Source: a virus
Taxonomy: Duplodnaviria > Heunggongvirae > Uroviricota > Caudoviricetes
Virus record (IMG/VR): IMGVR_UViG_3300047274_000273
Span: 55,217 to 119,216 of that record
DNA: 64,000 bases
Strand: one strand, 5' to 3'
A model generated the notes under the pieces. The model ran no database searches and was not told where the DNA came from. It was given only the letters and a program-made list of their open reading frames with translations. Positions 1 through 16,184 of the stretch are shown here, piece after piece. Position 1 is the stretch's first letter. Every line of letters begins with the position of its first letter. The position numbers and the translations under genes were made by a program.

Positions 1-345
1 TTTATCAAGCCCGATGTGGCTACCTACGTCATGGGACAGGCCTGCTCTATGGGATCATTCTTAGCTAATGCAGGAGCAGCAGGTAAGCGATTCATGCTGC
101 CTAATGCCCGTCACATGATCCATCAGCCATCGGGAGGCGCAAGAGGAATGGCATCAGATATCGAGATTTCCTATAAAGAGATCATGCATGTTAAAAAGCG
201 CCTTACGGAGTTGTATGTTAAACACAATACCAAAGGCAAGACCTACGAAGAGTTCGAAAGAGACATGGACCGTGACAAGTTCATGAGCGCAGAAGAAGCT
301 CTTGAATACGGACTCATTGACAAAATTATTGAGAAGCGACCATGA
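1..345 (+). CDS. clpP: ATP-dependent Clp protease proteolytic subunit ClpP, C-terminal part (5' end lies upstream of window)
   Basis: Frame-1 translation from nt 1 reads [21 protein letters not shown]...[17 protein letters not shown]...[13 protein letters not shown]. This matches the bacterial ClpP C-terminal half nearly residue for residue. Confidence 0.9.
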
Positions 346-743
346 CACAGAGATTAGAAGGTAAAGTAGACAAGGGTTGGGGATACGAGATCATTTGGGC
401 TACCAATGACAAATATGCAGGTAAGATCCTAGTATTTGAAAAGGTAGGTGCCAAGTTCAGTATGCATTTTCACAAAGAAAAAGACGAAACATGGTTCGTA
501 AATGCCGGCAGTTTCAAATTAATATATTGTGATACAAAAACAGCGACCTATCATGAAAAGATACTAAATGAAGGAGATGTTTGGAGAAATCCTCCTATGA
601 TGCCACATCAACTTATAGCTTTACAACCTAACTCAATGGTCTTTGAAGTTAGTACGCCCGATTCGGTAGAAGATAATTATCGAATTATTCCAGGAGATAG
701 TCAAAGTGCAACCAGCTCGCCAGAACAATCAACCAACACTTAG
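342..743 (+). CDS. cupin-fold protein (possible sugar-phosphate isomerase or epimerase)
   Basis: ATGA overlap with the clpP stop. Cupin motif G-x5-HxH-x3-E ([18 protein letters not shown]) and a second motif ([13 protein letters not shown]). Confidence 0.5.
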
Positions 744-1320
744 TTGGATAGGGGGAGAATTCCGAACTAAGTGTGTTATAGGTTTAGATCGGGACGGAGT
801 GATCAACAAAGACCTTGGTACATACTGTTATAAACCTGAAGACTTTGAAGCCATAGAAGGCAGTATGGAAGCTGTTGCTACTCTGCGCAGGAAAGGTTAC
901 AAGATAGTTGTGATAACAGATCAGGGCGGTATTGAGAAAGGACTGTATACGATGGAAGATGTAGACAAAGTCCACGAGAAGATGTTTGAGATGCTGGGTC
1001 AGGCCGGTTGCTCTAGTATTGATGCTCTTTACTATTCTGCTAGTAGTCGCAAGGAAGATCCTTTTGCCAAACCTAACACGGGCATGTTCAAACGCTGCGA
1101 AAAAGAAAATCCCGATATCAAATTCAAAGAAGGGTACTATGTAGGCGACAAGATCAAAGATCTTAAAGCCGCAGTCAACATGGGAGCAAAACCTATCCTT
1201 GTTCGAACTGGCTACGGACTAGAAACAGAAAAAGAATTGAATAAGTTTACCTACAGAGATCTTAAGAGACGCACAAAGATCTATGATAATCTTGCGGCCT
1301 TTGTTGAAAGCCTACCATGA
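706..1320 (+). CDS. HAD-superfamily phosphatase, GmhB-like (D,D-heptose 1,7-bisphosphate phosphatase family)
   Basis: N-terminal HAD motif VIGLDRDGVINKD; family IIIA layout (VVITDQGGI, GDKIKDL). The only ATG is at 706, so it overlaps the cupin ORF by 38 nt in another frame. Confidence 0.6.
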   Translation: MQPARQNNQPTLSWIGGEFRTKCVIGLDRDGVINKDLGTYCYKPEDFEAIEGSMEAVATLRRKGYKIVVITDQGGIEKGLYTMEDVDKVHEKMFEMLGQAGCSSIDALYYSASSRKEDPFAKPNTGMFKRCEKENPDIKFKEGYYVGDKIKDLKAAVNMGAKPILVRTGYGLETEKELNKFTYRDLKRRTKIYDNLAAFVESLP

Positions 1321-1721
1321 AGAAAGTAATTGTAAATGGAACTTTTGATATCTTCCACCTCGGGCACCTTAGATTATTGCAATACGCAAGGTCAGTACCT
1401 GACTCTTATGTATATGTTCTCATAGACAGTGACCGTCGAGTTAAACAACTCAAAGGTAATGACAGGCCTATACACAGCGAATACGAACGTGCAAGTTTCT
1501 TAGCAGCATTAAGAGCAGTCGATAGGGTAGATATATTTGACACCGATGACGAACTAATAAACTACATTAAAAACTTTGCTCCAGATATCATGGTCAAGGG
1601 CAGCGACTATAAAGATAAACCTATCATTGGAGCAGAATACTGCAAGAAGATTATATTCTATGACAGACTGGAAAAATACTCAACCACAAACAAAATACAA
1701 GATATTATTAATAGGAGATAA
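1317..1721 (+). CDS. heptose 1-phosphate adenylyltransferase (HldE domain II / HldC-like cytidylyltransferase fold)
   Basis: NGTFDIFHLGHLRLLQYAR (HxGH nucleotidyltransferase motif); RVKQLKGNDRP, VKGSDYK, STTNKIQDI. These align with the RfaE/HldE C-terminal domain. Confidence 0.75.
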   Translation: MKKVIVNGTFDIFHLGHLRLLQYARSVPDSYVYVLIDSDRRVKQLKGNDRPIHSEYERASFLAALRAVDRVDIFDTDDELINYIKNFAPDIMVKGSDYKDKPIIGAEYCKKIIFYDRLEKYSTTNKIQDIINRR

Positions 1722-2421
1722 CTGCGAAGATGTGTACCAATACGGCACTGTAGATCGCATATCACCCGAAGCACCTGTGCCGGTGTTTAAGTTTAGTCAC
1801 GAAGAACGTCGACCCGGTATGGCCGGTAACGTGGCTCGTAATCTAGAAGCACTAGGCTGTGAAGTTAATTACCTCCACGGCGAAACTTCGATCAAAACTA
1901 GATTAATTGATCGACGAAGCAAACAACATATTGTTAGAATCGACAATGATGTTACATCGAAGCCGATCGTCTTTGAAACAGAGATACCTAAAGCCTACGA
2001 CGCTATTGTCATCAGCGACTACAACAAAGGCACAGTTTCCTACGATATCATCGAGGAAGCCATCGCTACTAGAATTCCGGTATTCATAGATACTAAGAAG
2101 CCTGACCTCGAACACATGCAGGGTGCGTGGGTGAAGATCAACGAATTAGAATATAGTAAGATTAAATCAGAATGTTCTGGATTGATCGTTACACAGGGAT
2201 CGAAAGGTGCTCGTGCTGTACATCATGACCTTGAATTGCCTGCACCCAAGGTAGAAGTAGCGGATGTCACAGGTGCAGGTGATACATTTCTCGCAGCATT
2301 TGCCGTAGAGTTCATTAGACATAAAGATCTACGATCTGCCATGGAGTATGCTATACGAGCAGCTAGTATCACGGTACAGCACTTTGGTGTATACGCACCC
2401 ACAACTGAGGAACTTAAATGA
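1660..2421 (+). CDS. D-glycero-beta-D-manno-heptose 7-phosphate kinase (HldE domain I / HldA-like, PfkB family)
   Basis: KILLIGDNCEDVYQYGTVDRISPEAPVPV matches the HldE kinase N-terminus. C-terminal DVTGAGDTFLAAFA is the ribokinase-family anion-hole motif. Start taken at ATG 1660, giving a 62-nt overlap with the upstream gene. Confidence 0.75.
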   Translation: MTDWKNTQPQTKYKILLIGDNCEDVYQYGTVDRISPEAPVPVFKFSHEERRPGMAGNVARNLEALGCEVNYLHGETSIKTRLIDRRSKQHIVRIDNDVTSKPIVFETEIPKAYDAIVISDYNKGTVSYDIIEEAIATRIPVFIDTKKPDLEHMQGAWVKINELEYSKIKSECSGLIVTQGSKGARAVHHDLELPAPKVEVADVTGAGDTFLAAFAVEFIRHKDLRSAMEYAIRAASITVQHFGVYAPTTEELK

Positions 2422-3281
2422 TAGTCTTAACTGGAGCAGGTGGTTTTATTGGTAGTGTGATGTTGGGCTACCTCAACAAACAGGGCCGAGATGACGTTGT
2501 AATTTTCGATGATCTACCGCAGTCCAATCAATTTCAAAATCTAGTTGGCAAGAAGTACACTAACCTCTATAGGACACAGGATACCCCTGATCTAGATAAC
2601 ATAGAATGTGTGATACATCTAGGAGCCAACAGCAATACCCTAGAAAAAGATTGGAGTAGTATCTATAAGACCAACGTAGAATCTACTAGACTTTGGAATG
2701 CATTTTGTCTAGAACGTAACATTCCACTGATCTTTGCATCGTCTGCGGCGGTCTATGGTAATGGTCACGGTCCGATGAACCAATATGCATTTTCTAAACA
2801 TGTCAGTGAAAACGAAATCACTGCGGTGCGTCTTAGGCTGTTCAACGTCTACGGTCCAAACGAGCATCACAAAGGAGTCATGGCCAGTACAATCTACCAT
2901 TGGTATCAGCAGTTACAGTCGTCATCTAATATCAGGATCTTCCAAAATAGTAGACAGTACTTTAGAGATTTTATCTGGGTCGAAGATGTCTGTAAAACTA
3001 TCTATTATTTCATGACTAATTATCAGCCAGGCATCTACGATCTAGGCACAGGGAAACCCCGAGACTTTGAGTCTGTGGCTGATTTGGTCTTAAAGACAGT
3101 TGGACGTGGCGGAAAAACGTTTGTAGACATGTCTGAAGATCTCAAGGCACAGTACCAGACCTACACACGGGCTAACACAGATAGACTAGTTGAAGCAGGC
3201 GTACAGGTTCAAGAGTTCTTGGGCATAGAAGATGGTATTCCTCTATATATAGATTATCTCAAGAATGATTCTTACTATTAA
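2418..3281 (+). CDS. hldD: ADP-L-glycero-D-manno-heptose 6-epimerase-like NAD-dependent epimerase (HldD/RfaD family)
   Basis: [13 protein letters not shown] Rossmann start, short-chain epimerase layout, length 287 aa. Follows the HldE-like genes. Confidence 0.65.
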
Positions 3282-4465
3282 AATATCTGCTTGAGTGCAG
3301 ATACTAGGTCGCTCATCATGGCATCGTCATGATAGGGAGTAGGAGCGAATCTTAGTCTTTCGGTGCCTACCGCCACAGTTGGATAATTTATAGGCTGTAC
3401 ATAGATATTATAATCTGCCAGTAGTTGATCGCTCATGGCCTTGCATTTTTTAGCTTCCCCTACTAGTACAGGAACGATATGAGTAGTGCTGTCCATGACA
3501 GGTAGATCATTCTCTTTCAGCAGTTGTTTGAGCTTGGTAGCCCGCTCTTGATGGCGAACACGTATCTCGTTGTGATCTTTCAGCCATTTGACCGCAGCCA
3601 ATGCTCCTGCACAGGCCACAGGACTCATTGAAGTGGTAAAGATAAAACCAGCAGCTACCGAACGGATAGCATCAACGACATCTGCATCGGCAGCAATATA
3701 GCCACCTTGGACTCCAAAGGCCTTGCCTAGGGTACCATTGATTATATCAATCCTAGACTCTAGTCCGAGTTCTTCTACTTTTCCACCTCCGTGGGTTCCA
3801 TAGAGCCCTACCGCATGTACTTCGTCGATATAGGTAATGGCCTGATACTTGTCTGCGAGATCGCAGATATCTCGTATAGGTGATACATCACCGTCCATTG
3901 AGTAAACTGATTCAAATACTATACAGGGTGTATAGCCTGCGAGCTTTGAGGCTGCGAGTTTATCTTCTAGATCGTTTAGGTCATTGTGTTTGAAAACCTG
4001 TTTGGGGGCCTTAGAATGTTGTATGCCAACGATAAGGCTGTTGTGATTCTTACTGTCGCTGATAAATTGGATGTTATCAATGATCTTGCTCAGGGCAATG
4101 ATAGTCCACTCATTGGCCACATACGCAGAGCTGAACAGTAGAGCCTTGCTCTTATTGTGCAGCATGGCCAGTTCGTGTTCTAGGGCCACATGATAATGGC
4201 TGGTCCCCCCAATGTTACGAGTACCGCCCGAACCCGCGCCTGTTTGATCTAAGGCAGTGTGCATGGCATCTAGAACCACTTTGTGCTGCCCCATGCCTAG
4301 ATAGTCGTTGGAGCACCAATTAACTATAGTTTTAATGTTATAGGGACCGTACCAAATAGCACGAGGAAACTTGCCCGCTTCGCGAACGATGTCGTTAAAC
4401 ACGCGATATTTGCCCGTGTCTTTGAGATCTAGTATGAGTTTTTTAAAGGGTTCTTTGTTTATCAT
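3278..4465 (-). CDS. hemA: 5-aminolevulinate synthase (alpha-oxoamine synthase family, PLP-dependent)
   Basis: [63 protein letters not shown]. Alignable almost end to end with Rhodobacter-type ALAS. Confidence 0.8.
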
Positions 4466-4506
4466 AATCGTATTTAAGCCGATAAATATAGGATAAGGAA
4501 AGAGCC

Positions 4507-4746
4507 ATGGCAGATATTGTTAAATTAGATGTTCCCCTTTTTATTAGGTTACTCGAGCTTGCTAGAGAAGAAATCAAGGACGATGCAGACATCCACGATG
4601 TGGCAGAAATCGTTATCAAGATGAGCAAGGCAGGCCCGGTAACTATGGCCAACTACGATGCCATAGTTGAATTTATGAAAAAACAGGGCAGCGATTCCTC
4701 AGACAACGAATTGTCTAGGATTAAAAAATTAGGCGGTGTAGAATGA
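4507..4746 (+). CDS. hypothetical small acidic protein
   Basis: ORF with SD aaggaaagag upstream; no recognisable motif. Confidence 0.35.
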
Positions 4747-5033
4747 GAGTCACTGAGATCATACGGGGAATACTGGATATCATCGATGGAAAAAATATTC
4801 CACGTCCCGACCAAGAAGTTCCCAACGAACAGTTCTACGATGACGATGTTCGCAGGTTTCGTCAGATCGTAGATCTAAAAGATCAAGGTAATGCCACAGA
4901 ATATTCAAATACTCCCAAAGAAGAATATGCAGGTATTGAAGCAGTTACTACAGCAGCCGGCGGTGGCCCTAACAAACCTAAGCACATAGACGATATTCGA
5001 GGCGACAGTATTAGAGTACACGGAGGTAATTGA
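4743..5033 (+). CDS. hypothetical protein
   Basis: ATGA overlap with the upstream ORF. Confidence 0.35.
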   Translation: MRVTEIIRGILDIIDGKNIPRPDQEVPNEQFYDDDVRRFRQIVDLKDQGNATEYSNTPKEEYAGIEAVTTAAGGGPNKPKHIDDIRGDSIRVHGGN

Positions 5034-5034
5034 A

Positions 5035-5259
5035 ATGTCAGCAAACGGGATTTCAACTTTAGCAAATAAAAAATTAAGACAGGAAGCTAAACTTGCCTTA
5101 GCAGGACAAGATCGTGCAGATCAGAATGTTATCGAACCTGGAAGATACGCAGATACTACGGCAGACATTTCTCAGTTACCTACAAAATACAAAGCAGACA
5201 ACACTGTAGAAGACAATCCAAATGTAGGCGGACTACTACAAAGTCGGCCTTGGGCTTAA
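5035..5259 (+). CDS. hypothetical protein
   Basis: Tightly packed in the same operon. Confidence 0.3.
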   Translation: MSANGISTLANKKLRQEAKLALAGQDRADQNVIEPGRYADTTADISQLPTKYKADNTVEDNPNVGGLLQSRPWA

Positions 5260-5262
5260 TAT

Positions 5263-6597
5263 ATGGCTGAACGTAATCAAAGCAATACCACAAACTACGA
5301 GCATCCTCAGGAGAGTAATCTTCTAAACGTCCATAAGGCTATGGAGTACAATGCTTTAGGGCAACCTGTGCTTCGTACCACACTTAAGGTAGGACAGACA
5401 GATGCGTTTGGTCGTATTCGTATGTCTAGTCCGTTTACCTTAGGTGACTACAAACACTTATATGGATTAGATCCAAACTTTATTGACTATGCAGTTAACG
5501 GTGGTACAGTAGCATTTCAACCTAACAAAGCCTGTGCTAGACTAACAACCTCAAACGATCCTAGCAGTCGAGTAGTGCATCAGACTAAATTCTATCATCA
5601 CTACATGCCAGGCAAGAGTCAACAGATATTAAGTAGTTTTAACTTTTATGCGGCTACACCTAACGTAACTAAGCGTACAGGTTACTTTGACGACAACAAT
5701 GGTATCTACTTTGAACAAGCAGGCGACGGCACTCTATCGTGGGTTATACGCAGTTATACAACTGGAGCACCACAAGAAGTTCGCAAAACACAATCGCAGT
5801 GGAATATTGATCAGTGTAACGGACAAGGCGGCAGTCTGTTTAACTTAGACATAACTAAAACACAACTATCATTTATAGAGTTTCAATGGTTAGGTGTGGG
5901 TTCAGTTACTGTAGGATTTGTACACGAAGGTGCATTTATTCCCTGTCACATATTCCATCACTCTAATGATTTGTCTACTGTGTATATGAGTACACCTAAC
6001 TTGCCTGTACGCTGTGAAATTGTAAACACAGGCGAAACCACAGGTGCTTACTTTGATCAGATATGTTCAACTGTGGCTAGTGAAGGGGGATATGTAGAAG
6101 CAGGTATTGATTGGGCCGTAACTAGTCCTACATTAAAAACGATTGCCTCTGGCGCTACTTTGCCTATCATAGCTATTAGATTGAAAACAGCATTTAGAAC
6201 CTATGCCAATCGTATGATTGTACGCATGGGTAATCTTAAGATGTTTAGTGATGGCGACAGTATCAAGTGGCGTTTGCTAAAACTACCAGACAGTACCTAT
6301 CTCAACGATACCAATTGGGTTGATGTAGATGATGACAGTGGTGTTCAGTATAACGTAGATGCTACTACCTGGACCGACGGTGATGAACTGGACAACGGAT
6401 GGGTTGGTGCTAGTACACAAGGTAGTCAAAAAGCAGGCGGTGCGCCAGCATCTAACCTGCCCAGTGAAGCTAAGAAAAACTACATTGTACAAAACTATGA
6501 CAGTACTAATAGTGAAATCTATTTGGTAGTAGCAACTAATATTGGAGCACAGAGCACCAACGTAGGTGCGGGACTACAGTGGCGGGAGATTTATTAA
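5263..6597 (+). CDS. hypothetical beta-rich 444-aa protein (possibly virion-associated)
   Basis: Long ORF, Gly/Thr/Asn-rich beta-strand-like composition; no catalytic motifs recognised. Confidence 0.4.
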   Translation: MAERNQSNTTNYEHPQESNLLNVHKAMEYNALGQPVLRTTLKVGQTDAFGRIRMSSPFTLGDYKHLYGLDPNFIDYAVNGGTVAFQPNKACARLTTSNDPSSRVVHQTKFYHHYMPGKSQQILSSFNFYAATPNVTKRTGYFDDNNGIYFEQAGDGTLSWVIRSYTTGAPQEVRKTQSQWNIDQCNGQGGSLFNLDITKTQLSFIEFQWLGVGSVTVGFVHEGAFIPCHIFHHSNDLSTVYMSTPNLPVRCEIVNTGETTGAYFDQICSTVASEGGYVEAGIDWAVTSPTLKTIASGATLPIIAIRLKTAFRTYANRMIVRMGNLKMFSDGDSIKWRLLKLPDSTYLNDTNWVDVDDDSGVQYNVDATTWTDGDELDNGWVGASTQGSQKAGGAPASNLPSEAKKNYIVQNYDSTNSEIYLVVATNIGAQSTNVGAGLQWREIY

Positions 6598-7019
6598 TGT
6601 ATCGAAAGTATATCAAAATAGTAGAAGCAGCCAACAAAGGCTGTCCTATAGCGACCTATGACATCGATGTTAATCTAAAGAATCGTCAAAAAGCCATAGA
6701 TGAATATCACTACGGTCCTGCCAATCCCGAAGCACCAGAAAGTTATTGGAAAGATGCTGCCCGCCGTTGGGGTATTACAGAAAAGACTGCTAAGACTATG
6801 AAGTGCGGTAATTGTGCGGCCTTTGATGTTTCAGATAAGATGTGGTCTTGTATCGAGGACGGTATCAAAGGCGACAGCAAAGAAACAGATGCTATGGCCA
6901 CAATATACAAGGCAGATTTGGGCTATTGTAACTTTTTACATTTCAAATGCGCAGGCGATCGAAGTTGTACAGCGTGGGTCACAGGCGGCGCCATAGATAA
7001 CAAAGACCGAACACAATAA
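6579..7019 (+). CDS. hypothetical Cys-containing protein
   Basis: ORF only (KCGNCAAFD, CNFLHFKCAGDRSC). Confidence 0.35.
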   Translation: MAGDLLMYRKYIKIVEAANKGCPIATYDIDVNLKNRQKAIDEYHYGPANPEAPESYWKDAARRWGITEKTAKTMKCGNCAAFDVSDKMWSCIEDGIKGDSKETDAMATIYKADLGYCNFLHFKCAGDRSCTAWVTGGAIDNKDRTQ

Positions 7020-7029
7020 GGAGCGTATT

Positions 7030-7185
7030 ATGGAAAATTTTATAGACGGCGACGATACATATAAAAGATTAAAACTAGAATGCCAGTGCTGGCATACGCA
7101 ACACTGCGGGCATTCTTGTACAGATTCAGAATGCGATTGTAATGAATGTGTCTGTCCGGCATGTATAACTGAAACAGAGAAATAA
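7030..7185 (+). CDS. small Cys-rich protein (51 aa)
   Basis: MENFIDGDDTYKRLKLECQCWHTQHCGHSCTDSECDCNECVCPACITETEK: 10 Cys in 51 aa, below the ORF-track cutoff. Confidence 0.3.
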   Translation: MENFIDGDDTYKRLKLECQCWHTQHCGHSCTDSECDCNECVCPACITETEK

Positions 7186-7187
7186 AA

Positions 7188-7811
7188 ATGTTTCGTAGAC
7201 ATGATGTAACTCTCATGTCAAATCCTAGTTGTAGCAGAGCTGTTGATAATCTAGAAGATCGAGATTTTCGGTATTACGACAAAGACGGATTTGAGCTCAA
7301 TCAAGCAGAGCAGAAGTTTTACTCTGCTATGAGTTATCCTATCCAGTATCCCTGTCTCAATCATACCTGTTGGCAGGAGCCCTGGTTCGAACTAGAAAAG
7401 GGAGTTGATAACTTAATACTAGATCATTCTCTGTTCTTGTGTAGATGTGACTATGATAAAGAAGCCTTAGATCAATTACAGCAGATAAAAAATACTTTCC
7501 CCTTGGCTGACCTATTAATGCGTACAAAACGCAAGTGGGGATTTGATTTTTCATTAGATGCTGTGTCGAGAGAAGGCACAGTCTACGAAGTACTACATAT
7601 AGAGTACGATAACTATGACTACGAAAATTTTAAAAATCGTATGATTAATTTTGAGTGGATCGTCCGCCACACAGATTGGTCAGATGCTGCTCGACGTATA
7701 TGGGCAGAAAGAGAATCTTGGCAGCATCTGCACGGTTTTGATCAGAATAATTGGAAAGCTGAATATCTCTTAGGTTGGAAAAAGGCCGAGTATACTGAAA
7801 AGACCGTATAA
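7188..7811 (+). CDS. hypothetical protein
   Basis: ORF only. Confidence 0.35.
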   Translation: MFRRHDVTLMSNPSCSRAVDNLEDRDFRYYDKDGFELNQAEQKFYSAMSYPIQYPCLNHTCWQEPWFELEKGVDNLILDHSLFLCRCDYDKEALDQLQQIKNTFPLADLLMRTKRKWGFDFSLDAVSREGTVYEVLHIEYDNYDYENFKNRMINFEWIVRHTDWSDAARRIWAERESWQHLHGFDQNNWKAEYLLGWKKAEYTEKTV

Positions 7812-7838
7812 ATATAGTATCTTATTTGGATTCCTTAC

Positions 7839-8273
7839 ATGAAAAAACTGCTACTATTATTACTTGCTGTGCCTGCACTAGTATTCGCACAGAAAGCCCC
7901 ACAGGGTGTGACCTACGATGCTAAAATTCTTCGCGTGAGCGATGGCGATACGGTGGTGATCGCAGCTCCCTTTCTACCCGCACCCCTTAAGCCAGAACTC
8001 GCGATCAGAATTTATGGAGTTGACACTCCAGAAAAAGGACACAGAGCCCAATGTCCGAGTGAAAATCAACGAGGACAAGCTGCTTCTGCCTTTACCAAAA
8101 ACGCAGTCGCCACTACTCAAAAACATCAGGTCACGTTATACGGATGGGATAAGTTCGGTGGTCGTGTATTGGGAGATATCATTTTAAATGGTGTCAGTTT
8201 AAGAGCCGAGTTGATACGCAACGGATTCGCCCGCGAGTATTTCGGCGAAGCAAAGCAATCTTGGTGTAATTAA
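7839..8273 (+). CDS. secreted thermonuclease (staphylococcal nuclease / SNase-like)
   Basis: Signal peptide MKKLLLLLLAVPALVFA; LRVSDGDTVV...IRIYGVDTPEK...WDKFGGRVLGDI, the SNase-fold motifs. Confidence 0.7.
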   Translation: MKKLLLLLLAVPALVFAQKAPQGVTYDAKILRVSDGDTVVIAAPFLPAPLKPELAIRIYGVDTPEKGHRAQCPSENQRGQAASAFTKNAVATTQKHQVTLYGWDKFGGRVLGDIILNGVSLRAELIRNGFAREYFGEAKQSWCN

Positions 8274-8274
8274 A

Positions 8275-9141
8275 ATGCAGACAAAGAACTATCAAATCTT
8301 TGCACAACTTCTAGAAGGGTATGTTGACGAAGCGTCAACCTCCTTGAATCTAATCACAGATAGTCCTGGAGGCAAAGAAGTGGTTATGGCTCTGCACAAA
8401 GACATGCAGTTAGCGCACGATCAAGATTATCGTCAAGTAGATAAGATATCTTGGTCGGAACTCAAAGGCAGCTACAGAGGTGCATGGGTTATTATCAAAG
8501 GCAGCAAAGGTACAGGCGCTATCAAATCTAGAAACGATAACTACGACGCTGTGGCCAGCTCCGGCGGTCCTATACAAACTACCACTGATAGTAGAGGTGG
8601 TAATATTTTAGATTTTCTTAAAGGCGAGATTGGTAAACTACAAAAGTTTTATGTAGGAAAGAATACCACCGCAGTGGCTGACAAGCGTAAGAAACGCAGT
8701 GATAATGCAGCCGGTGCTAGTAACGAAGTCACTGTGGATACACTGACTAAAAAATTCAAACCTCTATGGGTACGAGCCATCACTGCCGCCATAGCAGATA
8801 TCAAAGGACATATCGCTAATCAGATCAAGAACGATGCCTTTGATAAAGCAGAAAAGAAACTTAGCCAAGTTAGAAATCTGCAGAATGCCATAGAAAGCCT
8901 AGAAGCAGGTTCTTCAGATGTACCAGGGTCTGTTGCCACAGCTATCAATACCGCGGTACTGATGGCAGCAAGTCACCATTATCCTGAACAGACAGGGAAT
9001 ATCACACGCGGTTATAATCGAGGCTTCACAGCACAGTTTCCGGAAGGAGCCAGGCAACTGTTACAAGACATTGCCGGTGGCGATCAAAAGAAACTAGGTA
9101 CAGTTCTTGGATTCTTCAAAAGGACTTTGATATCAGGATGA
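8275..9141 (+). CDS. hypothetical protein
   Basis: ORF only. Confidence 0.35.
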   Translation: MQTKNYQIFAQLLEGYVDEASTSLNLITDSPGGKEVVMALHKDMQLAHDQDYRQVDKISWSELKGSYRGAWVIIKGSKGTGAIKSRNDNYDAVASSGGPIQTTTDSRGGNILDFLKGEIGKLQKFYVGKNTTAVADKRKKRSDNAAGASNEVTVDTLTKKFKPLWVRAITAAIADIKGHIANQIKNDAFDKAEKKLSQVRNLQNAIESLEAGSSDVPGSVATAINTAVLMAASHHYPEQTGNITRGYNRGFTAQFPEGARQLLQDIAGGDQKKLGTVLGFFKRTLISG

Positions 9142-10268
9142 AATTAACTCAAATCGTATTAGAGGCCAATATCGCGGCCAAACTCAAAGATCCCAAGACT
9201 ATCAAGATGCTGGCCATCGCCATGCGTCACGATGGTACTTTGCCTAAGAACAGAGTAGCTAAACTAGGAACTAAACCTTCAGACGAGGAAGTGATTAAAC
9301 TATGGAGTGAGTTGTTAGATGACAGTCTTCGCAGCACAGACTACGGCGACCTAAGTGCCGATGGTAAGTTTGATGATTGGCTCACACGTCTTTATACCAA
9401 CGGTGTTGTTGACTACGAAGATATCAACGGAGAAGGCGGTGATGCACTTGGTGCTTGGAAGGCCCTGAGCACACGAGGTAAACTCAAAGAACCTCATCAA
9501 GATTTCAACAGGTTTAAGAGCCTAAAACAGATCCAGCAGATCGTACAAGACAGAGAATATCGAGAAGAACTGCGCAAGATCAAAGATGCAGAAACTATTG
9601 AAAAACACAAGCGTGAAAAGAAAGAAACCACACTGATCGATGATGATCGTTTCCTAGTAACATTGCCTTATAACTACGGCGCATGCTATACTTTCAATAA
9701 TAGCCACGGCTTCAATGCCAGCTTCTGTACAGGATCTAGCTCAGGCATGCGTTGGTTTGAAAGATATGCTCCAGAAGGTCCTATCATCAGTATTTTCGAC
9801 AAACAGAATCCAGACGAGAAGAATGGTAAGTGGCAGATGCATGGTCCAACAGGACAGATGAACAACGGAGATCAAAGTCTTAGTTACAGTAGAGGTGACA
9901 AGGAGTTTGCCGATCTATTCCCGGGACTATTGAAAAAGATTATCGCAGCTCTCAAATCTAAAGCAGAAGAAATCAAGACTAATTCTACAGAGATCGTCAA
10001 AGGGGGCTATGATATTAACAAGGCCATCGCCGATATCAAAGACAAGCTGCCTTATTCCTATGCATCAGAAGCAGCAGCTGAAGAACCAGAAGCTGAAGAG
10101 GATCCCAATGACGGCCCAGGAACTTATTTGGTAACACAGATAGCATCTGGTAGAACTGCACGTATCGAGGGCGAAAGCCGCCAAGACATCGTCACTAAGT
10201 TAACCACACGCTATCCCGATAGTACAGAAGCTGATTATACTATCGAGAAGCAACCTAACACACCTTAG
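9138..10268 (+). CDS. hypothetical protein with acidic C-terminus
   Basis: ATGA overlap with the upstream ORF. Confidence 0.35.
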   Translation: MKLTQIVLEANIAAKLKDPKTIKMLAIAMRHDGTLPKNRVAKLGTKPSDEEVIKLWSELLDDSLRSTDYGDLSADGKFDDWLTRLYTNGVVDYEDINGEGGDALGAWKALSTRGKLKEPHQDFNRFKSLKQIQQIVQDREYREELRKIKDAETIEKHKREKKETTLIDDDRFLVTLPYNYGACYTFNNSHGFNASFCTGSSSGMRWFERYAPEGPIISIFDKQNPDEKNGKWQMHGPTGQMNNGDQSLSYSRGDKEFADLFPGLLKKIIAALKSKAEEIKTNSTEIVKGGYDINKAIADIKDKLPYSYASEAAAEEPEAEEDPNDGPGTYLVTQIASGRTARIEGESRQDIVTKLTTRYPDSTEADYTIEKQPNTP

Positions 10269-10357
10269 GACCCGTTTAATTACGGTGTGTGTGCCCGGCT
10301 GCTGGGCGAGGATGATAGTAGGAGTCGTGCCCGAGGGCATCCTCAAGTGAGCTTTAT

Positions 10358-11005
10358 TTGGGATTTATGAAAACCATTGCTATTTTTGCACACCATCCTT
10401 TGTGTTCGGTGCAATCAGTAAACGGGATTATAGAATCCTTAACTCCCCATTACAAATTTAAAATTTTCACTAGACACGAAATCGAAGATGATTTCTTAGA
10501 TGATGTAGACTGTGTATGCTTTCCAGGCGGTGTCGGTGATTCTGATAGATACGATAATCTTTTAGTAAAACACAGGTCATCGATAAGGAAATTTGTCACC
10601 GGCGGTGGACATTATCTAGGAATTTGCCTAGGTGCTTATTGGGCGGGACATCACTACTTTGATATCCTAGATCCAGGTACACAGGTAATGCAGTATATCA
10701 AACGACCCAATGCCTGCACCAAAAGACCACATGCCAAGGGCATGCAGATCAATTGGCGGGGTACTGAACAGAGGATGTATTTCTATGACGGCTGTGCTAT
10801 TGTTGGTGATAATATGGACGTTGTGGCTACCTACAGCAACCATGATCCTATGGCTATTATACAAGGGAAAGTTGGGTTGATAGGATGCCACCCAGAAAGC
10901 CAAAAAAATTGGTACTCTTACCACTCTTGGATGCCCAAACATTGGCATCATAATACACATCACAAACTACTGTTAGATTTCACAGATTCTCTACTGTCTA
11001 GGTAG
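10358..11005 (+). CDS. hypothetical protein (class I glutamine amidotransferase-like / BPL_N-like fold?)
   Basis: CFPGGVGDSDRY...GGGHYLGICLGAY: weak resemblance only. Confidence 0.3.
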   Translation: MGFMKTIAIFAHHPLCSVQSVNGIIESLTPHYKFKIFTRHEIEDDFLDDVDCVCFPGGVGDSDRYDNLLVKHRSSIRKFVTGGGHYLGICLGAYWAGHHYFDILDPGTQVMQYIKRPNACTKRPHAKGMQINWRGTEQRMYFYDGCAIVGDNMDVVATYSNHDPMAIIQGKVGLIGCHPESQKNWYSYHSWMPKHWHHNTHHKLLLDFTDSLLSR

Positions 11006-11041
11006 TCCCGTATAAATATCTGTACAAGGAGGGGCAAGACC

Positions 11042-11194
11042 ATGAGACAGAAAAAGCTCGTAATGGAACTGTACAAGGCTTGCTTCGACCACGACGCCAA
11101 GAAGATGGCAGAACTCAAAAAGATCGAGTTCCAAAAAATCTTGAAACGCAAGGCCGAAGGTAAGCATTTTACACACCGCTGGACCGTTGTTCAG
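11042..11194 (+). CDS. small basic protein (50 aa)
   Basis: Strong SD (aaggagg) 7 nt upstream; below the ORF-track cutoff. Confidence 0.25.
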
Positions 11195-11244
11195 ATATAA
11201 TCGATCTGTAACATCTTAAAACTGATGCTGCGGTAAATACTGCT

Positions 11245-12075
11245 ATGCAGCGAACTTACCGCAGTATCTTCATCTCGGATGTACACCTTGGCACCAAGGA
11301 CTGTAAGGCCGAGGCGCTGAACAATTTTCTCAAACATCACACCTGCGATACGCTATATCTCGTAGGCGACATTATCGATGCCTGGAAAATACAACAGAAC
11401 AAGTGGCGTTGGAAACAAACACATACAAATGTTGTAAGAAGAATACTAGGACATGCCAAGAGAGGAACTCGTGTGGTCTATGTCGCGGGAAATCACGATG
11501 AGTTTTTAAGACCTATGATCCCATATGATTTCTCATTTGGGCTGGTTGAAATCCACAATCAGATAGAACACATAGGTGCAGATGGTAAACACTATCTAGT
11601 AGTACATGGCGATCTGTTTGACGGTATTACCAGATTGGCACCTTGGTTGAGTTTCTTAGGTGACAAGGCCTACGACTTCGTTCTATATCTAAACAGCAGA
11701 TTTAATTGGATAAGGCATAAGCTAGGTTTTGGATACTGGAGTCTCAGTAAGTATCTTAAACACAAGGTCAAGAAAGCAGTTGATTTTATATTTCAGTTCG
11801 AAATAAATTTAGCTGCCTACTGCAAGAAAAGAGGGTTTGACGGTGTGATCTGCGGACACATACATCACGCAGAGATCAAAGAAGTAGACGGTATTATATA
11901 TATGAATGACGGAGATTGGGTTGAGTCAATGACGGCCTTAGTAGAACACTGGGATGGTCGTTGGGAGATAGTAACTTGGACCAAGGAGCGAGACGATGTG
12001 GTTGCTGATAATACTAGCGGTACACGCAAACAATCCGCAAGACGTGCCGGGAAGAATAGTTCTAAACTTCGATAG
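11245..12075 (+). CDS. LpxH-family calcineurin-like phosphoesterase (UDP-2,3-diacylglucosamine pyrophosphatase-like)
   Basis: IFISDVHLG, LYLVGDIIDAW, VYVAGNHDE, VVHGDLFDG, ICGHIHH. This is the LpxH-type metal-ligand pattern. Confidence 0.6.
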   Translation: MQRTYRSIFISDVHLGTKDCKAEALNNFLKHHTCDTLYLVGDIIDAWKIQQNKWRWKQTHTNVVRRILGHAKRGTRVVYVAGNHDEFLRPMIPYDFSFGLVEIHNQIEHIGADGKHYLVVHGDLFDGITRLAPWLSFLGDKAYDFVLYLNSRFNWIRHKLGFGYWSLSKYLKHKVKKAVDFIFQFEINLAAYCKKRGFDGVICGHIHHAEIKEVDGIIYMNDGDWVESMTALVEHWDGRWEIVTWTKERDDVVADNTSGTRKQSARRAGKNSSKLR

Positions 12076-12150
12076 CCAGGAACAATGCGAAAAGACATTA
12101 TCAACTATGACATATTGGCTTAAATTTGACAGCTTCAGGATCAAGGGTGA

Positions 12151-13161
12151 ATGCATAAAAAAATCTTAATCATAACAGATAACCTACCGGATCAGATAAA
12201 TGGCGTGGTTACGACCTTTAAGAATATTGAGGCACGTGCTTTTCTGGACGGGCATAGCATTCTATACCTTGATCCCAGGCAGTTCTTACATTTTAGTAGC
12301 CCAGGCTACCCTGAAGTTAAACTTAGCCTTCCTTGGAAGATCGGCAAGAAGATTGAGGCGATGGCTCCGGATTATATACACATCGCCACCGAAGGTCCTA
12401 TTGGTCTGTGTGCTAGACTTTATCTTGACCAACGCGGCTATCGTTACAATACTAGTTACCATACTAAGTTCCCTGAATTTCTAAACAAAATCTACAACAT
12501 TCCTGTGGCATGGACCTACGCATATATGAGATGGTTCCATAAACACAGCGGTAGAGTATTGACCACAACGCAGTCTATGGTCGATGAACTTAGAGAACAC
12601 GGATTCAAGGGAGACATACGGCCCTGGACACGCGGAGTAGATCGAGCTAACCTCAAACCTACTAAGATATATTCTCACAGCGCATACCTACACCTGAAGC
12701 CTATAGTTCTTTATGTGGGCAGAGTCAGCAAAGAAAAAGGTCTAGATGATCTGTGTAGATTGCAAGATGAGTTCTCTATAGAAGTCGTGGGTGACGGACC
12801 TTATAGAGAAGAATTGATGAAAATGTATCCCGGGGTAAAGTTTCTAGGATATCAAACAGGTGCAGAATTGGCCAACAGCTATTCTCGAGCAGATGTATTC
12901 TGCTTTCCTAGCCAGACTGATACATTTGGTATCGTTATCATCGAAGCTCTTAGCCTTGGAACCCCAGTGGCTGCTTATCCCGTGCAAGGTCCTATAGATA
13001 TCTTAGAAACAGGTATCACAGGACACATGAGTTGGGATTTGAAGCAGAGTATAGAGATAGCCAAGCTATACCCTAGAGAGCGAGTAGCAGAAGCCAGCAA
13101 GAAATGGTCTTGGGATGCCTGCTGGCAGATCTTCAAAGAAAATCTTATTCCGCTACGATAG
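12151..13161 (+). CDS. glycosyltransferase, GT-B fold (GT4 family)
   Basis: N-terminal ITDNLPDQINGVVTT and C-terminal EALSLGTPVAAYP motifs typical of GT4. Confidence 0.65.
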   Translation: MHKKILIITDNLPDQINGVVTTFKNIEARAFLDGHSILYLDPRQFLHFSSPGYPEVKLSLPWKIGKKIEAMAPDYIHIATEGPIGLCARLYLDQRGYRYNTSYHTKFPEFLNKIYNIPVAWTYAYMRWFHKHSGRVLTTTQSMVDELREHGFKGDIRPWTRGVDRANLKPTKIYSHSAYLHLKPIVLYVGRVSKEKGLDDLCRLQDEFSIEVVGDGPYREELMKMYPGVKFLGYQTGAELANSYSRADVFCFPSQTDTFGIVIIEALSLGTPVAAYPVQGPIDILETGITGHMSWDLKQSIEIAKLYPRERVAEASKKWSWDACWQIFKENLIPLR

Positions 13162-13732
13162 TATCGTAGATTTCTTTCCAGTTCTTGACTTTACGGATAC
13201 CTTCTTGATCGAAGTCCATGTTATGTCCGTGTTCTACGAGCAAGGGTCTAAGACCTACATTTAGACCTGCGACACAATTGGTAAACTTATCTTCAATCCA
13301 CCAATAGTTTTTGCCTCGATACTGCTCAAGAACTTCATCTTTGTCTGCACCTGTTTCTAGGATGATAAATTTGGTAAATGCTGTCTTACCAAATAGCTTA
13401 CAGAGATTCATCTTGCGTAGAGCCTGGGCATTTTCATCTGAACTCATTGATGTGATACAATGGAACACATACCCATGCTCTTCGTGTAGTCTTTTTACAT
13501 AGTACATGGCATCACGCAGAGGGGGCAAGAAACCCATGTGCGCAGATTCATTGAAGATTTTGATTAGTTTTTTTGACTGCTCTTTTTCGATTCCATAGCG
13601 TTTGGCTATGTCATATTTGAACTGCCAATCATCTTGTTTTTGGAAGCCGTGTTGTTCCATCCAAACTGAGAATGCGAACTCCCAATCAAGGAGAACACCG
13701 TCTGCATCGGTTAAAATAATTTTATTTTTCAT
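13145..13732 (-). CDS. HAD hydrolase, 5'(3')-deoxyribonucleotidase-like
   Basis: N-terminal ILTDADGVLLDW (DxDG motif). Served by a consensus promoter that places the TSS on the start codon. Confidence 0.55.
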   Translation of the reverse strand: MKNKIILTDADGVLLDWEFAFSVWMEQHGFQKQDDWQFKYDIAKRYGIEKEQSKKLIKIFNESAHMGFLPPLRDAMYYVKRLHEEHGYVFHCITSMSSDENAQALRKMNLCKLFGKTAFTKFIILETGADKDEVLEQYRGKNYWWIEDKFTNCVAGLNVGLRPLLVEHGHNMDFDQEGIRKVKNWKEIYDTIVAE

Positions 13733-13738
13733 ACTGCT

Positions 13739-13767
13739 ATTATATACTCAGTTAATGATTATGTCAA
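13739..13767 (-). promoter_or_regulatory. consensus sigma70 promoter (TTGACA-17-TATAAT) giving a leaderless transcript for the HAD gene
   Basis: Minus-strand reading: TTGACA (13767-13762), 17-nt spacer, TATAAT (13744-13739). The predicted +1 falls on the ATG at 13732. Confidence 0.6.
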
Positions 13768-13813
13768 CCACTAGGACATTGCCATAAATATTGAACACAG
13801 TAAGGACAGACCA

Positions 13814-14434
13814 ATGTTAGAAACAATATGTGATATACTAGTAGAATCTTATAAACGAAATTGGATTACCAGCAGAGACGGTAATATCAGCATCCGCCAT
13901 CATGATCGAGACCATTTTTACGTAACGCCCAGTGGTGTTCGTAAGCAGACCATGCAGCCCGATCAGTTTAAAAAGATAGCCATAATTAATAGCAAAGATT
14001 GGACTGAATTGCCCTATAGCGATATCAGCATAGGGCTTAGGCCCACAGGAGAAATGCCTCTACATTTTGGCCTCCAGAGAAAAATTCATACGGACGAAGT
14101 TCGTGTCGTAACTCATATCCACCCTACCTATATCGTAGCTGCCATGCATGCTGGTATCGAACTCTGTGAATTAGTCAAAGACTTCCCTGAACTTAGTCGG
14201 TATACTAGAGTAGCACCTAATGTAGGTGATGTACCTCCTATTTCACAAGAACTAGGCGATCAGTGTCACAAAAACCTGGGTTTAAATGAAGAAACTGGAG
14301 AGATTAAGTATGATATCGTAGGAATAAAAGGTCACGGGGTCGTGGCCATAGATTCTACGCCGTGGCGTAGTTTCGAACATATAGAGCGTCTAGAACATAT
14401 CTGTAAGATAGTTTTAGCCTCTGGGAATTATTAA
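13814..14434 (+). CDS. class II aldolase/adducin-family protein
   Basis: SRDGNISIRH, YVTPSGV, VVTHIHPTY. Class II aldolase/epimerase signature. Confidence 0.55.
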   Translation: MLETICDILVESYKRNWITSRDGNISIRHHDRDHFYVTPSGVRKQTMQPDQFKKIAIINSKDWTELPYSDISIGLRPTGEMPLHFGLQRKIHTDEVRVVTHIHPTYIVAAMHAGIELCELVKDFPELSRYTRVAPNVGDVPPISQELGDQCHKNLGLNEETGEIKYDIVGIKGHGVVAIDSTPWRSFEHIERLEHICKIVLASGNY

Positions 14435-15138
14435 TGCTAACAATCTTATATACCCTAGTGATGGTACAAATCACTATTGCTTGTGTTACACTTTATCTAC
14501 ATCGTAGCCAAGCCCATAGATCAGTTCACTTTCATCCAGCGGTCGCACACTTCATGAGATTCTGGTTATGGCTGACCACAGGCATGAATACTCGAGAATG
14601 GGTAGCAGTCCATCGCAAACATCATCAGGCTGCTGATACAAGCGCAGATCCGCACAGCCCAAAAATATACGGTATTTGGCGTGTGTTATTTGGTGGTGCT
14701 CTGTTATATGTCAAGGCCAAGAGAAACAAGATACTTGTCAACGAATTGGGTCATGGCACACCCAGTGATTGGATTGAAGAAAAAGTTTATACTCCCCATC
14801 CTTACTTCGGGATTCTATTGATGTTGGTCATAGACCTTATTCTTTTTGGCCCGGTAGGAATAGTGGTATGGGGAGTTCAAATGCTATGGATACCTTTCTG
14901 GGCTGCAGGTGTAATCAACGGGCTTAGTCATTGGTGGGGTTACAGAGTATCAAATACTAACGATACTTCGAGGAATCTGTGGCCGCTGGCTATATGGATC
15001 GGCGGTGAAGAACTACATAACGGACATCACAGTGACGGAGCGAATGCAAAATTTAGTCAACGATGGTATGAAGTTGACATTGGATGGATATACATTTGTA
15101 TCCTGAGATTTTTTAAGCTAGCTAAAGTTAGGGCATAA
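14434..15138 (+). CDS. membrane fatty-acid desaturase (acyl-CoA/acyl-lipid delta-9 desaturase family)
   Basis: Three His boxes (HRSQAHRS, HRKHH, HNGHH) and hydrophobic spans. Confidence 0.75.
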   Translation: MLTILYTLVMVQITIACVTLYLHRSQAHRSVHFHPAVAHFMRFWLWLTTGMNTREWVAVHRKHHQAADTSADPHSPKIYGIWRVLFGGALLYVKAKRNKILVNELGHGTPSDWIEEKVYTPHPYFGILLMLVIDLILFGPVGIVVWGVQMLWIPFWAAGVINGLSHWWGYRVSNTNDTSRNLWPLAIWIGGEELHNGHHSDGANAKFSQRWYEVDIGWIYICILRFFKLAKVRA

Positions 15139-15140
15139 AG

Positions 15141-15168
15141 AAAGGGCTCCGAAGAGCCCTTTCTTTTA
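15141..15168. terminator. bidirectional rho-independent terminator between convergent genes
   Basis: aagggctc-cgaa-gagccctt: perfect 8-bp stem, flanked by an A-tract upstream and a T-tract downstream. Confidence 0.7.
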
Positions 15169-15217
15169 CCACACTAATATGTATACTTCCGCTATGCGGG
15201 ATATTTGAATAATATAA

Positions 15218-15499
15218 TTATTTCTTTGTACCGTTATTTACAAAAGCGTACATCTTTTCAGCGGTTTCAAGAACCTTGTCTAATCCTGGAAACTCAGGCA
15301 TAGAAACCTTGTTAACGATCTGACCGGTCTTCTCATCACGCTCTGCAGTCATTTCCCAACCTTGGAACTTGACATGGAAATCTTGGGCGACCAGGTCTTT
15401 GGCCATACCAAGGATTTCTGTACGGATTTCATAACCGTTCTTATTAAACTTAACTTCGGGTAATTTCATTTCTGGTAGGTTTAGTCCATTGTTTGACAT
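15218..15499 (-). CDS. hypothetical protein
   Basis: ORF with SD; last gene of a minus-strand operon. Confidence 0.4.
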   Translation of the reverse strand: MSNNGLNLPEMKLPEVKFNKNGYEIRTEILGMAKDLVAQDFHVKFQGWEMTAERDEKTGQIVNKVSMPEFPGLDKVLETAEKMYAFVNNGTKK

Positions 15500-15525
15500 A
15501 ATATTCTCCTTTGTGTGTGTATGTC

Positions 15526-15849
15526 TTATTCGGCTGCTTTGTCTACTTTGTAGGGAGCGGTTGCAGCCTGCTCCTTCTGCGGAAACAGCATCTTAGATAC
15601 TGAATCGACGGAATACTTAGCTAATGCAACAGTATTGTCTGCTAACATTAGAGCGAATTTGGTCTGTGCATCGATGTAGGCATGTGCTGCCTTGTTGAGT
15701 GTGGCGTCCTTAAAAATCTGATTAGCCACTACCTTTTTGGTGTTTTGAAAAGACTCAATATAGAAACTTGGTGAAAACATAACTCCTCCTTGTGTGTTTG
15801 TGTATGTAGTATTATATATCCCTAAGGGAAAGAAATCAAGACCCAACAT
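15526..15849 (-). CDS. hypothetical protein
   Basis: ORF only. Confidence 0.4.
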   Translation of the reverse strand: MLGLDFFPLGIYNTTYTNTQGGVMFSPSFYIESFQNTKKVVANQIFKDATLNKAAHAYIDAQTKFALMLADNTVALAKYSVDSVSKMLFPQKEQAATAPYKVDKAAE

Positions 15850-15852
15850 GAA

Positions 15853-16059
15853 TTAAAATCTCCTATCTGCCTCTAACAGCTCTACTTCCTGCTGACAATC
15901 TTCCCAATCACTGAACCGTTTCACGATCTTAGTTTTGTATGGGGTGATGCTCTTAAGGATTATATCATCATCAGCAAACTGAGCGATGGTAGTTATATAA
16001 CCCCATTGATTTCTCCAAGGACCCCATTGACTAAAAGGAATTTCCTTGAAATTTTGCAT
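15853..16059 (-). CDS. hypothetical protein
   Basis: ORF only. Confidence 0.35.
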   Translation of the reverse strand: MQNFKEIPFSQWGPWRNQWGYITTIAQFADDDIILKSITPYKTKIVKRFSDWEDCQQEVELLEADRRF

Positions 16060-16061
16060 GT

Positions 16062-16184
16062 TCAGTCTCTAAGAATGATATCCCTGGCCAGGTCGTGTCT
16101 GCCCATACGGCTGTAATATGCGGCTGCTCTGGCCTTACCGAAGCTTTCGCAAACTGCGAAGAATGATTTGATGATTTCTTTCAT
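16062..16184 (-). CDS. small protein (40 aa)
   Basis: MKEIIKSFFAVCESFGKARAAAYYSRMGRHDLARDIILRD; below the ORF-track cutoff. Confidence 0.25.
   Translation of the reverse strand: MKEIIKSFFAVCESFGKARAAAYYSRMGRHDLARDIILRD

Follow-up and report, generated by a model that had tools for sequence, protein, structure and literature searches.

Genes for 5-aminolevulinate synthase (ALAS), the enzyme that forms 5-aminolevulinate (5-ALA), have been described in phages before. ALAS, ho1, and a pcyX-like gene were already listed for large freshwater phages (Chen 2020), and the viral gene was later named valaS and found in marine and freshwater phage contigs, where it belongs to a three-gene cassette with hemO and pcyA or pcyX, to a broken cassette, or stands alone (Wegner 2024, Nat Commun 15:8783). 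One such enzyme, the vAlaS of CB_2, complemented the 5-ALA-auxotrophic Escherichia coli strain ST18 and was active in a lysate assay (Wegner 2024). Supplementary Data 1 of that study lists uncultivated virus genomes (UViGs) from Lake Grosse Fuchskuhle, 179 to 374 kb long with 38 to 42% GC, which have HemO, a bilin reductase, and AlaS and carry the entry "Cassette = N." Here we describe a 64,000-nucleotide stretch of a Caudoviricetes record in IMG/VR (IMGVR_UViG_3300047274_000273, positions 55,217 to 119,216), the whole of which we call the window, and an ALAS gene (alaS) on its minus strand. Phage alaS as a phenomenon is already known, the freshwater sub-clade included, and because the published Grosse Fuchskuhle layout and sub-clade match the window, the window adds one more member to a family already described and supported by experiment. 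Our reading, to which we assign a probability of roughly 0.88, is that the gene encodes a functional, classical ALAS belonging to the viral clade already published, and that a large freshwater myovirus-like phage carries it as an auxiliary metabolic gene.

The vAlaS proteins of the GROS21-1 UViGs from Lake Grosse Fuchskuhle match the window protein at 82 to 85% identity across the first 109 residues and share the N terminus MINKEPF. The GC contents are similar (38 to 42% for the GROS21-1 UViGs, 40 to 44% for the window), and in both AlaS, HemO, and the bilin reductase are present outside a cassette. The proteins are not identical, however, and the closest protein in the searched collections reaches 96%; a search of IMG/VR for the exact DNA gave no identical contig. 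Wegner 2024 gives no gene orientation, promoter motifs, transfer-messenger RNA (tmRNA), or flanking heptose genes. CB_2, from Crystal Bog, has a 527-kb genome with 37.5% GC. Its vAlaS is likewise a phage ALAS with the pyridoxal phosphate (PLP) lysine and the substrate sites and without the heme-feedback residues, and its HemO and ferredoxin-dependent bilin reductase (FDBR) lie elsewhere in the genome, a "broken cassette." It differs from the window in that the two ALAS proteins share only about 72% identity over 96 aligned N-terminal residues and in that the CB_2 FDBR is a true PcyA making phycocyanobilin, whereas the window FDBR is of the PcyX type.

Marine pelagimyophage-like contigs have the same three gene families, a T4-like myovirus background, curli CsgGF, and a two-piece tmRNA; a marine vAlaS example is about 73% identical to the window protein in an N-terminal alignment. 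In the marine contigs, however, hemO, pcyX, and valaS are contiguous and GC is 31 to 38%, whereas in the window hemO-pcyX, which is tied to clpS, and alaS are 45 kb apart on different strands. Among cellular systems, Rhodobacter capsulatus AlaS/HemA (2BWN) is of the same length class, with 54% full-length identity and identical catalytic and substrate residues. The window protein departs from it in having Lys for His342 and a C terminus short of Cys400, in being phage-borne, and in belonging to a clade apart from cellular sequences. Bradyrhizobium sp. ORS278, the only cellular genome so reported, has hemO, pcyA, and alaS together in an island by bphP. That island is cellular and contiguous, has PcyA, and serves a phytochrome; among the scanned open reading frames (ORFs) of the window, none was phytochrome-like.

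The gene itself is as follows.

3278-4465, minus strand: valaS, a 395-residue ALAS (EC 2.3.1.37) with an ATG start and a TAA stop, called from TIGR01821, ALAS matches in the PDB, residues, a neighbor-joining tree, and the ratio of nonsynonymous to synonymous substitutions (dN/dS)

A preliminary, sequence-only reading of this DNA had placed an ALAS gene exactly here, and the assignment held up. The NCBIfam 5-aminolevulinate synthase model, TIGR01821, scores 577.6 bits, exceeding its cutoff of 338.55 by 239 bits, and the Pfam match is the generic Aminotran_1_2 (PF00155; 222 bits). R. capsulatus AlaS aligns end to end with the window protein (430.9 bits; residues 8-392 on 8-394), as the same reading had claimed for Rhodobacter HemA. 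Other structures score 441.1 bits (ALAS 7X98), 375 (human ALAS2), and 200.6 (the best Kbl chain). We also built a neighbor-joining tree from Kimura distances on a 68-sequence subsample containing the window protein, IMG/VR viral homologues, cellular homologues, R. capsulatus AlaS, and Kbl/BioF outgroups; by this method, which uses distances and not maximum likelihood, the ALAS clade separates from Kbl/BioF in 100 of 100 bootstraps. Profile search and phylogeny relative to Kbl or BioF were among the checks named beforehand, and both put the window protein with ALAS.

Its active site is that of a fold-type I PLP enzyme, with the Schiff-base Lys248 and the PLP ligands His142, Asp214, His217, and Thr245 (R. 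capsulatus numbering throughout). Relative to 2BWN, Arg21, Asn54, Thr83, Asn85, Ile86, Ser137, His142, Lys156, Ser189, Asp214, His217, Thr245, Lys248, Thr365, and Arg374 are conserved. Our viral comparison set comprises 80 of at least 92 IMG/VR loci, 81 sequences with the window protein, and R21, N54, T83, N85, I86, H142, S189, D214, H217, T245, K248, T365, and R374 are invariant in all 81. Arg21, Thr83, Asn85, and Ile86 specify succinyl-CoA, and Asn54 and Arg374 specify glycine, as reported by Astner et al. 2005 for residues other than Thr83; the roles of Thr83 and Thr365 come from the literature on cyclizing ALAS (cALAS). Lys248 sits inside GTLGKAFG, the PLP-lysine region recognized earlier from the letters alone. 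The FCSNDYLGM motif named at the same time is also there, within residues 49 to 61, although the actual letters are WCSNDYLGM. Catalytic activity of this particular vAlaS is predicted from its family and residues, complementation and activity having been shown by others for a homologue.

At the heme-feedback site, R. capsulatus His342 corresponds to Lys340 of the window protein, and the C terminus stops before Cys400. The 81 clade members have R, K, Q, L, or T at position 342, and none has His there. Many vAlaS, not all, are without one or both of the feedback residues His342 and Cys400 (Wegner 2024, Nat Commun 15:8783). With both residues absent, the window enzyme is predicted to be feedback insensitive, and a supply of 5-ALA regardless of host heme status would be expected.

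Close relatives of the window ALAS occur in at least 92 IMG/VR stretches, and the window protein is 69 to 93% identical to the 80 viral loci compared. A protein search gave 8,000 matches, the top 120 at 82 to 96% identity. For cellular sequences we scanned one genome per species (185,579 species), and the figures that follow are among the matches listed: the top matches of the scan show 54 to 59% identity and are almost all alphaproteobacterial, the best 80 cellular genomes give 52 to 59% identity to the window protein, and identity between any viral and any cellular sequence is at most 58 to 59%. All 100 bootstraps recover the viral clade as monophyletic, and its stem measures 0.18 substitutions per site. 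Comparing the window gene pairwise with its viral homologues gives dN/dS values of 0.02 to 0.09, and synonymous sites are close to saturation even between proteins that are 93% identical. The low identity to cellular ALAS and the long stem argue that phage alaS is an ancient acquisition, and the dN/dS values that it is held under strong purifying selection. Two records among the best 80 cellular matches are not alphaproteobacterial, Leptospira interrogans LS0056 and a metagenome-assembled genome of "Candidatus Sulfopaludibacter" (55 to 56% identity); they may reflect horizontal transfer, contamination, or mis-binning.

The surroundings of alaS are those of a phage, as the sequence-only reading had assumed. 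A virion structural protein gene (phrog_1645; E 8.5e-108) lies 0.8 kb away, and further phage-type genes of the window encode more virion proteins, a tail-spike-like protein, a PAAR protein, nucleases, and both ribonucleotide reductase subunits. Genes are tightly packed and nearly all on one strand. The left flank holds two features:

16-345, plus strand: clpP-like gene of which the window edge leaves the 3' part; it is a conserved neighbour on the left side of alaS (PF00574, E 6.8e-43; NCBIfam ClpP models)
706-3281, plus strand: homologues of GmhB phosphatase, HldE domain II adenylyltransferase, HldE domain I kinase, and HldD epimerase (best matches, under equivalog cutoffs)

The last of these, the epimerase gene, converges on alaS, and the 3' ends overlap by 4 nt. 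In the 80 loci, the order is clpP (beside the alaS block in 55 of the 80), a cupin gene, sometimes the four ADP-heptose-type genes, alaS, two to three small ORFs, the phrog_1645 virion protein gene, and more shared genes. The alaS strand is opposite to all neighbours in every informative locus, and the synteny recurs on viral contigs of up to 280 kb. From the same position and orientation across so many viral loci it follows that alaS is a stable part of a phage lineage and not an assembly artefact or host fragment. As part of our reading, we place that lineage among large freshwater myovirus-like phages related to the pelagimyophage/Melnitz group. The heptose genes are a variable insert between the cupin gene and alaS, found in about a quarter of related viral loci. 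No GmhA was seen with the four homologues of the ADP-L-glycero-beta-D-manno-heptose pathway in the window. Virion or DNA glycosylation and lipopolysaccharide remodelling are candidate roles.

A conserved element lies in the 41-nt spacer between alaS and the gene diverging from it.

4471-4488, no strand assigned: inverted repeat TATTTA-N6-TAAATA, the only exact copy in 64 kb (0.08 expected)

The minus-strand box (plus-strand positions 4471-4476) ends 5 nt before the alaS ATG, and 18 nt separate the plus-strand box (4483-4488) from the ATG of the divergent 79-residue ORF at 4507. Across 55 distinct viral loci, the repeat is at least 90% conserved while its flanks vary, and in 48 of them TAAATA ends 4 to 8 nt before the alaS start. 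A Shine-Dalgarno core precedes alaS in just 1 of the 55, compared with 30 of 99 ORFs in the window. Over the whole window, TAAATA is the most upstream-enriched hexamer, ranking above the Shine-Dalgarno hexamers: 17 of its 37 copies are within 40 nt before a start on the coding strand (17-fold; binomial p of about 2e-17), against 3 of 37 in the antisense control. It often occurs as ATAAATATAG, for example at 7809-7814, 20646-20651, 23007-23012, 25037-25042, and 49797-49802. There are two spacing classes. In one, the box starts 24 to 33 nt before the ATG and is followed by a Shine-Dalgarno site; in the other, it starts 11 to 16 nt before the ATG with no Shine-Dalgarno site (alaS, hemO, and the genes starting at 11245, 19373, 38851 on the minus strand, and 42978).

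The T4 late box reads TATAAATA. T4 late promoters are simple, consisting of an 8-bp TATA box roughly one helical turn ahead of the start site. The repeat would accordingly be read as two putative T4-late-like promoter boxes standing back to back, one per divergent gene. The box close to the ATG suggests that the alaS mRNA may be leaderless, or nearly so, and expressed late, and the two spacing classes suggest T4-type late promoters with some leaderless genes. An operator or hairpin, considered as the first reading of the repeat, was set behind the two-box reading, which is simpler because TAAATA is enriched upstream of genes and the box on the other strand serves the divergent gene. The antisense, Shine-Dalgarno-less, late-box arrangement of alaS is absent from the published description and is an addition of this work. 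A copy of the repeat with three mismatches (TTTTTATCTGCGTAAATA) is found at 19345-19362 on the plus strand, 10 nt upstream of a 131-residue ORF (19373-19768).

The synthesis of heme, chlorophyll, and B12 is controlled at its entry point, the formation of ALA. In the mechanism that we propose, vAlaS would act as a PLP-dependent homodimeric alpha-oxoamine synthase that condenses glycine and succinyl-CoA to 5-ALA, releasing CoA and CO2, from its own transcription unit, most probably starting at the T4-late-type TAAATA box near the ATG. The host enzymes HemB to HemH would then turn phage-derived ALA into heme and other tetrapyrroles during infection, and the phage HemO and PcyX could convert part of the heme to biliverdin, iron, and a phycoerythrobilin-type bilin. 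Several points weigh against our reading or parts of it. CB_2, whose vAlaS is the only experimentally tested one, is just about 72% identical in the aligned N-terminal region, and the predicted feedback insensitivity depends on two residues only. A comparison of part of the window with PHROGs turned up no gp55-like late sigma factor; the TAAATA motif could also be an AU-rich translation enhancer or an operator palindrome, and a weak AU RNA hairpin is another reading. The literature leaves the benefit to the phage between heme or B12 supply, bilin production, and iron release.

A phage that has its own feedback-insensitive ALAS can override the control of tetrapyrrole entry in the infected cell, a point made, with one enzyme tested, in 2024. 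To this the window adds a freshwater large-phage member and the view of a clade that is large (92 or more IMG/VR stretches, with metagenome proteins in the thousands), old, and under strong purifying selection. It also offers details that may guide experiments: the antisense late-box placement without a ribosome-binding site, the Clp neighbourhood, and a tmRNA that speaks against taking alaS as an alphaproteobacterial marker.

That last use of the gene had been proposed in the sequence-only reading, in which ALAS was a clue to an alphaproteobacterial host. The corresponding alternative is that the gene was recently captured from such a host and boosts the host's own Shemin pathway. The predominance of alphaproteobacteria among the best cellular matches listed agrees with this, as do the clustering of the marine relatives with pelagimyophages and the prediction of Methylocystis as the host of CB_2. 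The window, however, has a tmRNA of another kind.

36528-36898, plus strand: permuted (two-piece) tmRNA gene with the tag ANAANDEVYALAA (ARAGORN; RF01850 beta_tmRNA; RF04321)

Its best Rfam subtype is betaproteobacterial: RF01850 scores 134.1 bits against a gathering score of 84 and matches along the whole model, and RF04321 scores 138.1 bits. No glutamine riboswitch adjoins the tmRNA at gathering thresholds. The related marine myophage Melnitz has an alpha-type tmRNA, and it shows that in this phage group tmRNA or tRNA ancestry need not point to the class of the actual host, a switching of hosts that also tells against reading the host from alaS. Further, cellular ALAS is at most 59% identical among the matches listed while viral sequences reach 96%, on a long viral stem; the window GC of 40 to 44% counts against recent capture from an alphaproteobacterium; and one alaS phage has been predicted on a gammaproteobacterial methanotroph, non-alphaproteobacterial hosts being modelled explicitly (Wegner 2024). 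Because the transfer was ancient, alaS says little about the present host. The marker claim was not supported; we consider recent capture from an alphaproteobacterial host doubtful, and an alphaproteobacterial host for this phage is possible rather than probable.

A second alternative concerns what the enzyme is for: alaS might chiefly feed the phage HemO-PcyX, the three genes forming one split pathway whose end product is bilin or released iron. The ho/FDBR module is present in the same genome, about 45 kb downstream, where the sequence-only reading had located it.

49234-49536, plus strand: clpS adaptor gene (PF02617, E 5e-29)
49810-50367, plus strand: hemO, heme oxygenase, 185 residues (PF01126, E 2.7e-22; PDB heme oxygenases, E 1e-15)
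50354-51040, plus strand: pcyX-type FDBR gene, 228 residues (PF05996; PDB 5OWG)

The hemO and FDBR genes overlap by 14 nt. The FDBR scores 227.3 bits against the PcyX structure 5OWG and 48.6 bits against PcyA and is therefore of the PcyX type. hemO is 45.3 kb from the alaS start, and alaS and the FDBR gene are 45.9 kb apart on opposite strands. The same opposite-strand geometry recurs on two long IMG/VR contigs, UViG_3300042402_002641 and UViG_3300028275_000480, at distances of 42.4 and 47.9 kb; the split arrangement is thus conserved. That the three genes share one genome, keep this geometry, and in marine relatives form a contiguous cassette all favours a common pathway, as does the TAAATA box immediately before the ATG of both alaS and hemO in the window.

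The box before hemO, which ends 7 nt before the ATG, is not conserved in relatives: it is absent in 50 of 54 distinct upstream regions, which leaves no conserved co-regulation signal. Instead, the usual setting of hemO-pcyX is a clpS operon: 76 of 80 related loci have clpS directly before hemO, its stop next to the hemO start; the window is an exception, with an 86-residue ORF (49533-49793) in between. A conserved promoter class common to alaS and hemO, true in the window, fails in relatives, where hemO is translationally coupled to clpS, and we dropped it as evidence for co-regulation. The biochemistry is also indirect. Seven host enzymes lead from ALA to heme, none of them in the window, and a scan of 64 further window ORFs gave no other tetrapyrrole-pathway family, so that the host must supply all the steps between. 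Relatives of the FDBR occur in 375 viral stretches compared with 92 for alaS, about four times as many, and stand-alone alaS contigs exist; contig fragmentation stands in the way of a proper co-occurrence test of the two. The purpose of the catabolic genes is "still enigmatic" to the authors of Wegner 2024. Of the earlier proposal that alaS feeds the module, the co-occurrence in one genome stood, whereas the seven intervening host enzymes, the separate transcription units, and the place of hemO in the clpS operon tell against it. Such feeding is possible but indirect, and we judge it unlikely to be the chief role of alaS.

Two further observations concern this region. On IMGVR_UViG_3300027679_000366 (85.9 kb), two FDBR matches, 76% and 73% identical to the window PcyX, lie about 6.8 kb apart on opposite strands, which may be a duplicated bilin-reductase locus or an assembly repeat. 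In the window, DnaK (46806-48695) and Hsp20 (48729-49190) precede clpS, and a proteostasis module seems to be linked to the heme genes, with Clp genes beside both tetrapyrrole loci. The 629-residue DnaK matched host-like or contaminated records and huge phages and was uninformative for phage taxonomy.

The Clp genes allow a more elaborate scheme. In plants, GluTR, the entry enzyme of the C5 pathway, is known to be a substrate of ClpS/Clp, and in bacteria Clp and Lon turn it over. In a host that uses the C5 (glutamyl-tRNA) route, perhaps of betaproteobacterial type as the tmRNA suggests, phage ClpS/ClpP could remove host GluTR and free tRNA-Glu for translation, while vAlaS made from a leaderless late transcript would stand in for the regulated entry step as a foreign Shemin bypass of one enzyme, blind to feedback. 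Wegner 2024 already contains the bypass idea; what would be new is the Clp link and the leaderless late expression. We regard the full scheme as speculative and its probability as low.

That alaS is bacterial DNA, as a mis-assembled or mis-binned host fragment or a host gene flanking a prophage, is very improbable. ALAS is typically a cellular housekeeping enzyme and is missing from deposited phage genomes: searched with tblastn, GenBank phages gave only matches at the Kbl/BioF level (27 to 35% identity, mostly in contaminated or transducing records), so no deposited phage genome encodes ALAS and no isolated phage with alaS is available. Megablast of window positions 1-20000 against GenBank phages likewise found no match. 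Against a bacterial origin of the fragment, alaS recurs in the identical place and orientation across dozens of independent viral contigs that come from many samples, with virion and phage genes on both sides; the tight packing and the overlap of its 3' end with the neighbouring gene argue the same way, and the viral clade is distinct from all cellular ALAS in the tree.

A misreading of another alpha-oxoamine synthase (Kbl, BioF, serine palmitoyltransferase, or CqsA) as ALAS has hardly any probability left. These enzymes share the fold and Pfam family PF00155, and their models match the window protein at E values of 1e-94 to 1e-48. All of them nevertheless stay under their curated cutoffs, in contrast to TIGR01821: NF005394 (glycine C-acetyltransferase/Kbl) scores 315.8 of the required 460 bits, TIGR01822 252.9 of 493, and TIGR00858 (BioF) 315.2 of 426.45, and the serine palmitoyltransferase and CqsA models behave likewise. 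The window protein is 54% identical to R. capsulatus AlaS, 30% to Kbl, and 28% to BioF, ALAS is monophyletic in 100 of 100 bootstraps, and the succinyl-CoA- and glycine-binding residues are kept, contrary to a non-ALAS reading. A cALAS, which makes the C5N unit of secondary metabolites as in actinomycetes, is just as improbable: it is an ALAS homologue with the VWCSNDYL and DEVHAVG motifs in common, yet all of its marker substitutions (T83S, I149L/V, D231T, and T365S) are absent from the window protein (T, I, E, and T), and no amide-synthase or ALA-CoA-ligase gene adjoins alaS, whose neighbours are the epimerase gene and the 79-residue ORF, although the triad of cALAS, amide synthase, and ALA-CoA ligase genes is described as always adjacent.

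The remaining features of the window lie away from alaS.

30864-30938: tRNA-Gly(TCC)
34102-34177, plus strand: tRNA with anticodon CTA, amber-suppressor-like (ARAGORN tRNA-Pyl; Rfam tRNA, 59 bits)
52498-54860, plus strand: CsgF, CsgG with a C-terminal SH3 domain, and a curlin-repeat protein (the repeat a weak match, E 3e-5)
54860-55939: FecR-domain protein, after the curlin-repeat protein

Wholesale recoding of TAG that would affect the ORF calls was considered and rejected: TAG, the rarest stop, still ends 10 of 100 ORFs, read-through extensions are short, and alaS ends in TAA. Pelagimyophages and Melnitz are known to have CsgGF pores, reportedly without genes for amyloid subunits; the curlin-repeat protein, if real, would set the window apart from them. 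A bulk Pfam scan, which assigns families to window regions and not to individual ORFs, found a fatty-acid desaturase, a class II aldolase, a GT4 glycosyltransferase, DUF454, and a BPL_N domain in 6579-30953. An SPFH/Band 7 match is at 31614-32411. In 31614-46723, the scan found IMP dehydrogenase/GMP reductase, ribosomal protein S21, an AhpC/TSA peroxiredoxin, the carboxymuconolactone decarboxylase family, a CHASE2 domain, an adenylate/guanylate cyclase domain, a D-Ala-D-Ala carboxypeptidase, a cell-wall hydrolase, and an Rv2179c-like exoribonuclease.

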